Positions 52,963 through 60,294 of a DNA stretch of 64,000 nt are shown piece after piece. The stretch lies in assembly GCA_000004985.1 (NCBI GenBank), contig GG738845.1. One strand, written 5' to 3'. A model generated the notes under the pieces. That model was given only the letters and a program-made list of their open reading frames with translations. It did no database searches and was not told the origin of the DNA. Source of the DNA: Naegleria gruberi (lineage: Eukaryota). Position 1 is the first letter of the stretch; every line of letters begins with the position of its first letter. A program made the translations under genes and the position numbers.

Positions 52963-53718
52963 TTAATCGAATCTTCTTGACATTTTAGATTGTGGTGTTG
53001 ACAGTGTATTATTGGAAGGAGGAATAGTCACCGAAGGAGCATTATTACCAACTACTGTATTTTGTTGTAAAGTGGGTGGATTTGAATTAGTTGCTCCCAT
53101 TTTCAATGAGTTTATCATTTCTGGAGGAATAAAATCCATTAGTCTTGAATTATTTACCAAATTATAAGCAGCATCATCTTGTAAATCTCTTTCCTGTTGA
53201 ATAGTATTTCCCATTTTTGCAAGAGTTTCTTTCAACATATTACTAAATTCAACAACCATACTTTGCATTTTCTGTTTTTGTTCTTCAATTTCTCTTTGTT
53301 TTAATTCAATAATTTGATCTTTTTCCTTCTTAACTTCATGAAGAGCAACTTTAGCAAGATGTAACTGATCTGCTAAAGAGGTATTCTTTTGCTCACTCGT
53401 ATTTAATTTTTCAATTAAAGTTTTTTGCAGAGCTTTGTATTGTCTAATCATGTCCGAGGCAATATGAAATCTTTCCATCTTTTCCTTTTCAAAATCTTCA
53501 TCCAATTGAGATAATTTTGACTTCATTTCCATCTCGGAGGCTCTTGCCTTTTGCGTTTGTTCAGATCTTAATACCATATACCTTTCTAACGTTTCAATGC
53601 GTAGTTTTAATTTTTTAATTTCCTCCTTTTGTTCCTGTATTAAGTCAGCATCTGTTTTCTCTCCAGGTTTGCTGTTTTTGTTTCCCTTTTGATTTTTGCT
53701 AGGTGTTTTAGAAGACAT
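52963..53718 (-). CDS. Short coiled-coil flagellar protein, DRC12/CCDC153-like (DUF4515 family), 251 aa
   Basis: ATG at 53718..53716. The N-terminus is basic and continues into a coiled coil carrying the family hallmark IASDMIRQYKALQ (compare DMTRQYK.MQ in CCDC153/BBOF1) and a later MQSMVVEFSNMLKETLAKM segment. Its stop codon (52965..52963) lies 1 bp from the PHF5A stop. Confidence 0.5.
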   Translation of the reverse strand: MSSKTPSKNQKGNKNSKPGEKTDADLIQEQKEEIKKLKLRIETLERYMVLRSEQTQKARASEMEMKSKLSQLDEDFEKEKMERFHIASDMIRQYKALQKTLIEKLNTSEQKNTSLADQLHLAKVALHEVKKEKDQIIELKQREIEEQKQKMQSMVVEFSNMLKETLAKMGNTIQQERDLQDDAAYNLVNNSRLMDFIPPEMINSLKMGATNSNPPTLQQNTVVGNNAPSVTIPPSNNTLSTPQSKMSRRFD

Positions 53719-53762
53719 TGTTTGAAATCAATTTTTTTGAAAGAAGTGATTGAACAATAAAA

Positions 53763-53777
53763 ATAAAGGCGGGAGAG
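53763..53777. promoter_or_regulatory. E2F-like GC box (ATAAAGGCGGGAGAG; core GGCGGGA at 53768..53774), DRC12-like / IFT52 bidirectional promoter
   Basis: It lies 45-59 bp upstream of the DRC12-like ATG (53718) and 82-96 bp upstream of the IFT52 ATG (53859). Confidence 0.45.
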
Positions 53778-53820
53778 ATACCAGGACAGTTTGTAGAGTC
53801 AGTTTAAAATTCTGTTACAT

Positions 53821-53834
53821 TTTTGGCGGGAACA
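53821..53834. promoter_or_regulatory. E2F-like GC box (TTTTGGCGGGAACA; core GGCGGGA at 53825..53831), IFT52 / DRC12-like bidirectional promoter
   Basis: It matches the textbook E2F site TTTTGGCGGGAA. It lies 25-38 bp upstream of the IFT52 ATG (53859) and 57 bp from the other box, in the same orientation. Confidence 0.5.
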
Positions 53835-53858
53835 TAACTACAACAACAAAGAAAAAAA

Positions 53859-55385
53859 ATGACGGAAATACAATCAAAGGGTTCTGAACAGTCTTCAAAG
53901 ACAATAATGTTCAATGTTTGTAAGAATGAGTACGGAACACCTAAAAACAACTTACAAAAGCTCTATAAAAAACTAAGGATGGAATATAAAACGATAATGT
54001 AAGTGATGATGACAATACAATTTCTAAAGAGTCCTGCAAATAGCAATGAAGAGGATTTTAACCTTGAAAAATTAAAACAAGCGGATTTGGTAATATTTTG
54101 TGGCCCTAGGTTGAAGTTTACAGAGCAAGAGGTACGTAAATTAATTTGGAATTTTCATACCCAACAATTGTAGTTTGCTGCCATAGGACAATATATTAAA
54201 GAGGGAGGAAGCGTGCTATTCCAATTAGGAGAGGGAGGTGAACCAAGATTTGAAACTAATATTAACTATCTTTTAGAAGAATGGGGTGTTTTCATTAATT
54301 CCGATACTGTGATCAGAACATCCTTCTTTAAATATTACCATCCAAAGGAAGTTTGTGTACAAAAGGGTGTGCTTAACAGATCAATTAATAGAGAGGCTGG
54401 TAAAGGAAACGATCTTGGTAGTGATTTATCAGATCCAAACTCTCACCTTACATTCGTTTATCCATATGGAGCCACTTTAAATGTTGAAAGTCCATCAACT
54501 GCCATTCTTGCTTCTGGGCATATTTCATATCCTGTTAATAGACCTGTATGTGCCTTTTATTCCTCCAAAAATGACAAAGGGAGAGTAGCTGTTATTGGAA
54601 GTGTTCATTTATTTGATGATAAGTGGCTGGAAAAAGAGGAAAACTCAGTTCTTCAAGATGTAATTTTCAAATGGCTGTTGTTTGGATTTGATTTGAATCA
54701 GATTGATGCAACTTCACCAGAAGTTAATGATTATCAATTCCTTCCTGATTCCAAATCACTTTCTGAAAAGGTTAAACCATGTCTACAGGAGAGCGAGGAG
54801 CTGCCCATTGATTTTACAGAATTGTTTGTGGACAAGATGTTTAAATTTGATACTGATTTGATACCTGAGGCTGTTAATTTATATGCTCAACTTGGTGTGA
54901 AACATTCACCTCTTACTTTGATTCCACCTGCTTTTGAAACTCCATTGCCGAGTTTAAGACCTGCAGTTTATCCTCCTTCACTTCGAGAATTTGCCCCTCC
55001 AGAAATTGACCTTTTTGATTTGGATGAACAATTTGCCTCTGAAGATGTTCGTTTGGCTCAACTCACTAACAGATGTACAGATGAGGATGCTGATTATTTT
55101 ATTCAGAAGGCTGGAGAAATTGTTGGTGTTACCAAATTATTGAAATCTGAATATTCTTTCAGTGCAAAACATATTCTTGAATTAATGTTTAGACAGATAG
55201 TGCAATTCAAGAAGGTTAATCCAAGTAATGAAGACATTTTGCCATCACATTTGAGGCACAATAAGGTTCTTCCAAAGTTGGCAAAAAATATTGAAACCAT
55301 ATCAAACCCTGTAACAAATCCTCCAACACCAATTTCTTCTCCACTCAGAGGAGGAAATTTGAGTGATGATGAATATGTAGATTAA
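53859..55385 (+). CDS. IFT52: Intraflagellar transport protein IFT52 (IFT-B core), 479 aa, 3 exons
   Basis: join(53859..53998,54044..54131,54174..55385) is 1440 nt. The introns are 45 and 42 nt (GTAAGT...AAATAG and GTACGT...TTGTAG), and the phases close. The sequence is colinear with human IFT52: TIMFNVCKNE / TILFNAYKKE, CGPRLKFTEQEF / AGPREKFTAAEF, and LGEGGEPRFETNINYLLEEWGVFINSDTVIRTSFFKYYHPKE / LGEGGESRFDTNINFLLEEYGIMVNNDAVVRNVYHKYFHPKE. Confidence 0.9.
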
Positions 55386-60213: not shown

Positions 60214-60294
60214 CGCGGTCTACAGGATTCGAACCTGTGCGGGTCGCCCCAATTGATTTCTAGTCAATCACCTTAACCACTCGGTCAAGACCGC
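60214..60294 (-). tRNA. tRNA-Ser (anticodon AGA), class II with long variable arm, no intron
   Basis: The reverse complement folds by hand. Acceptor stem GCGGTCT pairs with AGACCGC, and the discriminator is G. The D arm is ACC-GAGTGGTTAA-GGT. The anticodon stem is ATTGA/TCAAT with loop CTAGAAA (anticodon AGA). The variable arm is TGGGGCGACCCGC. The T arm is ACAGG-TTCGAAT-CCTGT. Confidence 0.9.

Follow-up and report, generated by a model that had tools for sequence, protein, structure and literature searches.

The DNA analysed here, called the window, is a stretch of 64,000 nucleotides from the Naegleria gruberi contig GG738845.1 (assembly GCA_000004985.1). Towards one end it contains a divergent intergenic spacer of 140 bp, which is bounded on one side by a minus-strand ATG (CAT at 53716–53718) and on the other by a plus-strand ATG at 53859–53861 (Table 1). 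The preliminary description of this locus had placed both start codons exactly and had considered both flanking genes flagellar, which is borne out by homology. The product of the plus-strand gene matches the IFT52_GIFT, central, and C-terminal domains of Pfam (1e-68, 1e-34, and 2e-20, respectively) and has hundreds of orthologues named IFT52, while the minus-strand product, named "Dynein regulatory complex protein 12" in UniRef, has a match at E = 2e-16 to CCDC153 (DRC12) in the solved structure of an axoneme (chain 8th8_S). Barring unseen upstream exons, both promoters must be located within the spacer.

Table 1. Positions in the window of the spacer, its flanking genes, and the sequence elements discussed in the text.
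Feature	Position	Strand	Remarks
IC97/CASC1 variant GGCGGCA	3903..3909	-	TTTTGGGCGGCAAAAA in gene orientation; GGGCGGCAAAAA at -25; 25 bp upstream of ATG 3884
Box upstream of LRR gene NAEGRDRAFT_61232	6111..6117	+	126 bp from first in-frame ATG (5985); 258 bp from annotated ATG (5853)
NAEGRDRAFT_77710 variant GGCGGCA	9514..9520	+	GCGGCAAA; upstream of coiled-coil gene, ATG 9453, minus strand
BBS4 box	22587..22593	-	TTTCCCGCCAAAA on + strand; 46 bp upstream of BBS4 ATG 22633
Box in 102-bp divergent spacer	38361..38367	-	TTCCCGCCAAAT on + strand; between NAEGRDRAFT_56451 (minus) and multi-exon coiled-coil gene (ATG 38403, plus)
DRC12/CCDC153 gene NAEGRDRAFT_45024	52963..53718	-	251 aa, single exon
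Divergent intergenic spacer, DRC12/CCDC153 (minus) / IFT52 (plus)	53719..53858	.	N-termini of both proteins match orthologues
Distal GGCGGGA box	53768..53774	+	Context AAAGGCGGGAGAG; 50 bp from DRC12 ATG; antisense to DRC12
CTACAA sense to DRC12	53791..53796	-	TTGTAG on + strand; between both boxes; 78 bp from DRC12 ATG
Proximal GGCGGGA box	53825..53831	+	Context TTTTTGGCGGGAAC (TTCCCGCCAAAAA on opposite strand); 34 bp start-to-start upstream of IFT52 ATG
CTACAA sense to IFT52	53838..53843	+	Between proximal box and ATG
IFT52 gene NAEGRDRAFT_77715	53859..55385	+	Three exons; two short introns, about 31-42 nt

The spacer contains two GGCGGGA cores which, as first described, share the same orientation and are 57 bp apart; the gap to the nearer ATG is 49 nt for the distal box, on the DRC12 side, and 27 nt for the proximal box, on the IFT52 side. 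Only the 7-mer core is common to the two boxes, whose flanks have no similarity, and an origin by duplication was considered and rejected, as no extended repeat surrounds them.

In the window GGCGGGA occurs 5 times versus 0.41 expected, a count that none of 100 dinucleotide-preserving shuffles reaches, so that the initial view of the boxes as non-random promoter elements holds. The genome is compact, and the DNA outside long ORFs amounts to about 9.2 kb (14%) of the window; all five GGCGGGA copies and all seven copies of GGCGG[GC]A, two of them GGCGGCA variants, are located in this fraction. Here GGCGGGAA is the top over-represented G+C-containing 8-mer (4 observed versus 0.026 expected). On the opposite strand three of the five GGCGGGA sites read TTCCCGCCAAA, an 11-mer with three copies in the window versus about 0.01 expected. 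A scan of the window for Rfam families and tRNAs returned one tRNA-Ser only, which is unconnected with the boxes.

Relaxed copies of the box precede five recognisably flagellar genes of the window, namely IFT52, DRC12, BBS4, IC97/CASC1, and the LRR gene NAEGRDRAFT_61232. BBS4 is identified by many orthologues of this name, and IC97/CASC1, an inner-arm dynein I1 subunit, by the Pfam domain Casc1_N (7e-41) and the PDB chain 8glv_AE. The UniRef name of the LRR gene is "FM140", in which we take "FM" to refer to the genes that the genome paper assigned to flagellar motility by phylogenetic profile. Three uncharacterised genes are also preceded by relaxed copies (NAEGRDRAFT_77710, NAEGRDRAFT_56451, and the coiled-coil gene at 38403), and none of the three has a significant match in Pfam, searched to E = 1, or among PDB sequences; a GGCGCC palindrome (9468–9475) is also present upstream of NAEGRDRAFT_77710. 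An ENA contig with this last gene is 100% identical to the window and belongs to the same species, hence it gives no footprint. None of twelve housekeeping genes of the window (TspO, AP-sigma, HSP70-like, CCDC93, BCD1, FKBP, TFIIIC, BOP1, CDC73, PHF5A, TPI, and GCFC) has a site upstream, and this distribution, set against the five flagellar carriers, agrees with the tie between motif and flagellar genes that had been proposed.

The conservation of the sites was followed in six genomes, those of N. gruberi, N. fowleri, N. lovaniensis, an environmental Naegleria (JGI 3300002220), Willaertia magna, and Acrasis kona, the loci retrieved from the relatives being IFT52, BBS4, DRC12, and CASC1. At the IFT52 locus of N. 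fowleri, the only GGCGGGA in 13.5 kb is found at -34, with strand and offset identical to those in N. gruberi. No other block is conserved in the alignment of the two upstream regions, the remainder of which is unalignable, and a box placed at random would fall within ±3 bp of this offset with a probability of about 7 in 27,056. IFT52 is likewise preceded by TTTGGCGGCAAAA at -37 in the environmental Naegleria and by TGGCGCCAAAAA at -31 in Acrasis kona. At BBS4 the sites are TTTCCCGCCAAAA at -46 in N. gruberi, AAATGGCGCCAAAA at -46 in N. fowleri, ATGGCGCCAAA at -24 in the environmental Naegleria, and GCGGCAAA at -13 in Acrasis; a possible alternative start codon abuts or overlaps the site in N. 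fowleri BBS4 and in Acrasis IFT52. Upstream of DRC12, N. fowleri has GGCGCCA at -153 and not GGCGGGA, and N. lovaniensis only AAGGCGGT, with a GGCGG core. The recurrence of the boxes in sister species, on which the preliminary description had made its interpretation depend, is therefore observed for the IFT52 box (at -34 in N. fowleri) and not for the distal box, which is not kept as GGCGGGA. No site is present upstream of IFT52 or BBS4 in Willaertia magna, the nearest relative sampled beyond the genus Naegleria, or upstream of CASC1 in N. lovaniensis; a metagenome scan for DRC12 is uninformative, since the homologues recovered are all distant (60–64% identical, in unidentified eukaryotes) and none has an upstream box.

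Across the six genomes a site within 150 bp of the ATG is found in 10 of 15 ciliary promoters and in 1 of 80 controls, the latter being all annotated neighbour genes in the fetched loci (Fisher p = 3e-9); p-values of this kind are optimistic, since the promoters are related by descent and the relaxed pattern (GGCG[GC][GC]A type) was in part widened with the N. fowleri sites already in view. A chance or compositional artefact, in which G+C-rich words are simply conspicuous in A+T-rich intergenic DNA, might be suspected from the small sample and from the 30% G+C of the intergenic DNA; it is effectively refuted by the shuffles, by the excess of the 11-mer, by the single control promoter with a site, and by the N. 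fowleri box, whose offset and strand are retained. The boxes are thus predicted, with high confidence, to be functional cis-elements associated with flagellar genes.

The most informative point, which the preliminary description missed, is the E2F-family identity of the box. The consensus of this family is GCGSSAAA / TTTSSCGC (Rabinovich 2008, in the form cited in PMC4862756). All GGCGGGA-type sites fit this consensus or nearly so; both spacer boxes are imperfect, the proximal one matching at 7 of 8 positions on either strand and containing an exact TTCCCGCCAAA, the distal one (GGCGGGAGAG), which has no A-run, being weaker with 6 of 8. Complete 8/8 matches are found at BBS4 and CASC1 in N. gruberi (in the latter case through GCGGCAAA) and at both IFT52 and BBS4 in N. 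fowleri, in the environmental Naegleria, and in Acrasis. Moreover, the orthologous sites interchange GGCGGGA, GGCGGCA, and GGCGCCA, that is, exactly the S-S degeneracy of GCGSSAAA, and variation that remains within this degeneracy is the pattern that selective constraint by an E2F-type protein would be expected to produce. The strict form GCGSSAAA, an a priori consensus whose result is independent of the widening of the pattern, has 18 matches in 209 kb, and 8 of these are located within 50 bp upstream of IFT52, BBS4, or CASC1 ATGs, a target that represents about 0.4% of the DNA. Among SELEX and JASPAR motifs, TTCCCGCCAAA(A) corresponds to the E2F7/8 type, GGCGGGAA to the E2F4/6 ChIP motif, and AAATGGCGCCAAAA to the E2F1-4 SELEX motif.

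Most sites are 13–70 bp from the ATG (distances being taken to the ATG and not to the transcription start), in both orientations and usually in single copy; the box is sense at IFT52 and antisense at BBS4 and DRC12, and the use of both orientations suggests a DNA-binding factor and not an RNA element. A composite of the CDE/CHR type was also inspected by eye and rejected, since TTTGAA is found 4 nt downstream of the GGCGG core at no site. Taken jointly with the action proposed below, the assignment of the GGCGGGA boxes to predicted sites of the E2F-family type, with TTCCCGCCAAA as the full form, is probable. Judged from its sequence and conservation, the proximal box is predicted to be the ancestral IFT52 promoter element and an E2F-type site, and the distal box, on the DRC12 side, appears evolutionarily labile. 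No published description of such an element in Naegleria was found in the literature on Naegleria and E2F, motif, or promoter.

A candidate second element is the hexamer CTACAA, two divergent copies of which flank the proximal box in the spacer (Table 1). Sense CTACAA within 100 bp of the ATG is found in 6 of 16 ciliary promoters and in 0 of 80 controls, a post hoc comparison that is borderline after multiple-testing correction. In N. gruberi, copies 9–34 bp upstream of the ATG are found at IFT52, BBS4, and the coiled-coil gene at 38403; IFT52 has such a copy in N. fowleri and Willaertia also, and BBS4 in Willaertia, the two Willaertia matches being outside the discovery set. CTACAA may be an initiator-like element or the site of a second factor, and its presence might account for the ability of Willaertia to do without the box.

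The factors that could recognise an E2F-type site are encoded by N. gruberi, for which one E2F (RRIYD), one DP (RRVYD), one DEL (RRIYD), and one RB have been described, with sequences in the supplement of PMC4862756. In these published sequences NgruE2F, NgruDP, and NgruDEL all contain the DNA-recognition motif RRXYD, and the acidic C-terminus of NgruE2F (...GEGVSDLFL) is read as RB-binding-like. On the other hand, the boxes could be functional elements of a flagellar regulon bound by a protein outside the E2F family, such as a lineage-specific zinc-finger or another GC-box binder, their E2F likeness being coincidental. The GGCGGG/GGGCGG core is indeed also GC-box-like, the A-run is missing from the distal box, and the occurrence in Willaertia of CTACAA without the box implies that another factor may be the real determinant of the regulon. 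A coincidence of this kind is nevertheless rather unlikely, given that the orthologous sites (GCGGGAAA, GCGGCAAA, GCGCCAAA) vary exactly within the E2F degeneracy, that some of them are of the palindromic TTTGGCGCCAAA type, from which a GGGCGG core is absent, that most of them are flanked by T/A runs, and that E2F, DP, and DEL proteins with an intact RRXYD are encoded.

If the binder belongs to the E2F family, the function of the sites has to be considered, the textbook role of E2F being G1/S control. Ordinary cell-cycle sites, concerned with proliferation or quiescence and linked to flagellar genes only incidentally in a small sample, might be envisaged because differentiation follows removal from growth conditions, so that cell-cycle exit and flagellar induction coincide; in addition, the comparison sample included no classical E2F target. 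No E2F site was found at cell-cycle genes in the sampled DNA, which contained no canonical G1/S gene (MCM, PCNA, RNR, cyclin). What makes this explanation quite improbable is that every identifiable box-bearing gene is structural and flagellar: the identifiable targets are IFT52, BBS4, DRC12, IC97/CASC1, and FM140, and do not form a classical E2F cell-cycle regulon. Furthermore, 79 of the 80 other promoters have no site, including those of the growth-related BOP1, TFIIIC, CDC73, and MAD, and Naegleria amoebae divide without centrioles or flagella (PMC5839779).

The arrangement of the two genes is a separate matter. With 140 bp between them they fall well within the distance, less than 1 kb between divergent genes, by which bidirectional promoters are defined, and the preliminary description had regarded the spacer as a natural minimal bidirectional element, with boxes roughly five to six helical turns apart. 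Such an integrated unit would drive both genes through cooperation of the two same-orientation boxes, held at a fixed spacing of 57 bp, as is suggested by the flagellar nature of both and by the 140 bp common to them; moreover, the divergent CTACAA copies on either side of the proximal box mean that one box could serve both directions. The comparison with relatives argues otherwise. N. fowleri and N. lovaniensis both keep the PHF5A-DRC12 block of the window, but there the divergent neighbour of DRC12 is an HSP20-like gene. The gene ahead of IFT52 in N. fowleri and the environmental Naegleria is a TauE gene on the same strand, and in Willaertia it is an unrelated gene, with no DRC12 nearby. Neither a TauE nor an HSP20 homologue is present in the window. 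Among the genomes compared, the head-to-head DRC12-IFT52 pair is thus found in N. gruberi only, and its absence from N. fowleri, N. lovaniensis, the environmental Naegleria, and Willaertia, which argues against the idea of a natural bidirectional element, indicates that the spacer is a lineage-specific juxtaposition, a rearrangement junction. As for the spacing, the distance itself is correct and corresponds to 5.4 turns, which places the boxes out of helical phase, and a role for the spacing or for the shared orientation is unsupported; other promoters as a rule have one box, in either orientation, and one box suffices at BBS4, IC97, FM140, and N. fowleri IFT52. Considering also the dissimilar flanks of the two boxes, an integrated unit is very unlikely, and the spacer is best read as two abutted single-box minimal flagellar promoters that would have been set back to back in the N. 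gruberi lineage. The earlier interpretation is in this way partly supported, being right on the flagellar promoter element and wrong in its emphasis on the bidirectional unit and on spacing.

Returning to the E2F reading, the proposed mechanism would be as follows. E2F-type boxes would mark flagellar proximal promoters in Naegleria and in at least one other heterolobosean, and their most likely binder would be the N. gruberi E2F-DP heterodimer or the atypical, E2F7/8-like DEL, possibly under RB control. Starvation activation through E2F-DP, or the loss of repression by DEL/RB, might then switch on the flagellar regulon at the amoeba-to-flagellate transition, both the sign and the timing of the effect being conjectural. 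The induction of flagellar mRNAs in Naegleria is transcriptional according to work cited in a 2025 review (PMC12183034), and the same review reports that Naegleria has no RFX, FOXJ1, or XAP5 and that its cilia-gene transcription factors are unknown. In its strongest form, the proposal is that an E2F-family factor (E2F-DP or DEL, possibly RB-gated) is the direct master regulator of the heterolobosean flagellar and basal-body regulon, acting via a single promoter-proximal TTCCCGCCAAA-type site on IFT, BBSome, and axonemal genes; this is a serious possibility that is put forward tentatively.

The predicted E2F-type sites of Naegleria can be compared with several known systems. They resemble the E2F/DP sites of animals and plants in sequence (TTCCCGCCAAA three times in the window, GCGSSAAA at orthologous positions), in their number, usually one or two copies, and in the presence of cognate E2F, DP, DEL, and RB genes in the N. 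gruberi genome; their closeness to the ATG, in either orientation, may be a further likeness. They differ in the genes that carry them, structural flagellar ones (IFT-B, BBSome, nexin-DRC, inner-arm dynein I1) in place of G1/S replication genes. The animal X-box/RFX ciliary regulon is similar in that one short promoter-proximal motif, near the start codon, is common to IFT, BBS, and axonemal genes; however, it is based on another motif and another factor family, no match to the X-box (GTNRCC N0-3 RGYAAC) is present anywhere in the window, and Naegleria has no RFX (PMC12183034).

A closer parallel is offered by vertebrate multiciliated cells, in which the Multicilin-E2F4/5-DP1 complex (EDM) redirects E2F to centriole-biogenesis genes after exit from mitosis (Ma et al. 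2014, PMC4083089); geminin-family co-factors (Multicilin/GEMC1) are described there for vertebrates. As in those cells, an E2F-type site would serve in Naegleria a cell that is not dividing and has to form basal bodies de novo before its cilia, with E2F diverted from cell-cycle genes. The division of labour is different, since in vertebrates E2F4/5 acts on centriole genes and RFX/FOXJ1 on IFT, BBS, and axonemal genes, whereas in Naegleria, which has neither RFX nor FOXJ1, the sites are directly on IFT, BBS, and axonemal genes. Among protists, regeneration of the oral apparatus in the ciliate Stentor coeruleus involves early induction of E2F, whose predicted targets peak with centriole genes and whose RNAi blocks regeneration (Sood et al. 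2022, PMC9371601), the proposed parallel being the involvement of a protist E2F in the rebuilding of a ciliary structure. In contrast to the Naegleria carriers, the 13 targets predicted in Stentor cannot be grouped under any characteristic function and count a cyclin and a cyclin A-associated protein among them, and no conserved site on IFT/BBS genes is reported in that study (PMC9371601).

Naegleria makes its basal bodies and flagella from nothing in about an hour. An E2F-consensus motif whose position is kept on IFT52 and BBS4 from Naegleria to Acrasis makes the question of its cilia regulator experimentally concrete, and the interest of the finding rises once the box is seen as an E2F-type site kept at these two genes across Heterolobosea. 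If the proposal is true, the role of E2F in ciliogenesis would reach beyond vertebrate multiciliated cells and one ciliate into a deep-branching lineage, and E2F would act directly on structural cilia genes. Should E2F be the heterolobosean master regulator, the link between E2F and ciliogenesis would be ancient, possibly ancestral to eukaryotes, and not an animal invention.

The hexamer CTACAA is found in gene sense 9-34 bp ahead of the ATG of IFT52 in N. gruberi, N. fowleri, and Willaertia, of BBS4 in N. gruberi and Willaertia, and of the coiled-coil gene starting at 38403. In a post hoc count it is present in this orientation in 6 of 16 ciliary promoters versus none of the 80 control promoters, which belong to annotated neighbour genes in the fetched comparison loci, and it occurs even at promoters devoid of an E2F-type box (GGCGGGA and relatives). 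CTACAA, recognised post hoc, may be an initiator-like or a second regulatory element.

Positions of the promoter features and of the LRR gene (window coordinates unless a fetched comparison locus, L001, L002, or L010, is named)
Feature	Position	Strand	Remark
CTACAA in IFT52 sense, 140-bp spacer	53838-53843	+	
CTACAA in DRC12 sense, 140-bp spacer	53791-53796	-	-78 of DRC12
CTACAA upstream of BBS4, N. gruberi	about 22601-22606	+	
CTACAA upstream of the coiled-coil gene at 38403	about 38373-38378	+	
CTACAA in comparison loci	L001 about 5990; L002 about 5989; L010 about 5992		
Second compact divergent promoter	38301-38402		102 bp; one TTCCCGCCAAAT box
Region upstream of NAEGRDRAFT_77710	9454-9530		two E2F-type sites
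LRR gene NAEGRDRAFT_61232	4012-5985	-	UniRef name 'FM140'; downstream of box at 6111

As regards the E2F-type motif in the relatives, it is absent from IFT52 and BBS4 of Willaertia; a single perfect GGCGGGAAA site (L010 1135-1143), which falls in 1.7 kb of DNA where no gene is called and is separated by about 290 bp from an uncharacterised gene, shows that the motif is present in the genome of this organism. In N. fowleri BBS4 (L008 9952-10003) an in-frame ATG in an A-rich context lies inside the box AAATGGCGCC, 48 nt before the annotated start, and in Acrasis IFT52 (L018 3969-4003) the box is immediately followed by an in-frame ATG. The annotated start codons of both genes are possibly incorrect; the boxes would then abut or overlap the translation start.

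At the other end of DRC12 (-), its stop codon and that of the convergent PHF5A (+) are one base apart (52961-52963) and the 3' UTRs of both genes must therefore overlap; the convergent order is kept in N. fowleri and N. lovaniensis with a gap of about 120-130 bp. The sole RNA gene detected within the window is a tRNA-Ser (anticodon AGA; 60214-60294, minus strand).

The annotation of NAEGRDRAFT_61232 uses the ATG at 5853 and the first in-frame ATG is at 5985. An LRRC56/ODA8 homologue is induced early in differentiation (PMC4361367), and its putative identity with NAEGRDRAFT_61232 was considered. The metagenome contig ERZ929261 from ENA (L017 2445-2796) is 100% identical to window 9451-9802 across the intergenic region; a public metagenome thus contains DNA like that of N. 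gruberi NEG-M.

NAEGRDRAFT_77710, an uncharacterised coiled-coil protein gene (750 aa), is preceded by GCGGCAAA at about -67 and by a GGCGCC palindrome at about -21, and is a candidate further flagellar gene. The second compact divergent promoter is flanked by NAEGRDRAFT_56451 and the multi-exon coiled-coil gene at 38403, both uncharacterised; by association, each is a candidate for a new gene of the flagellum or basal body.
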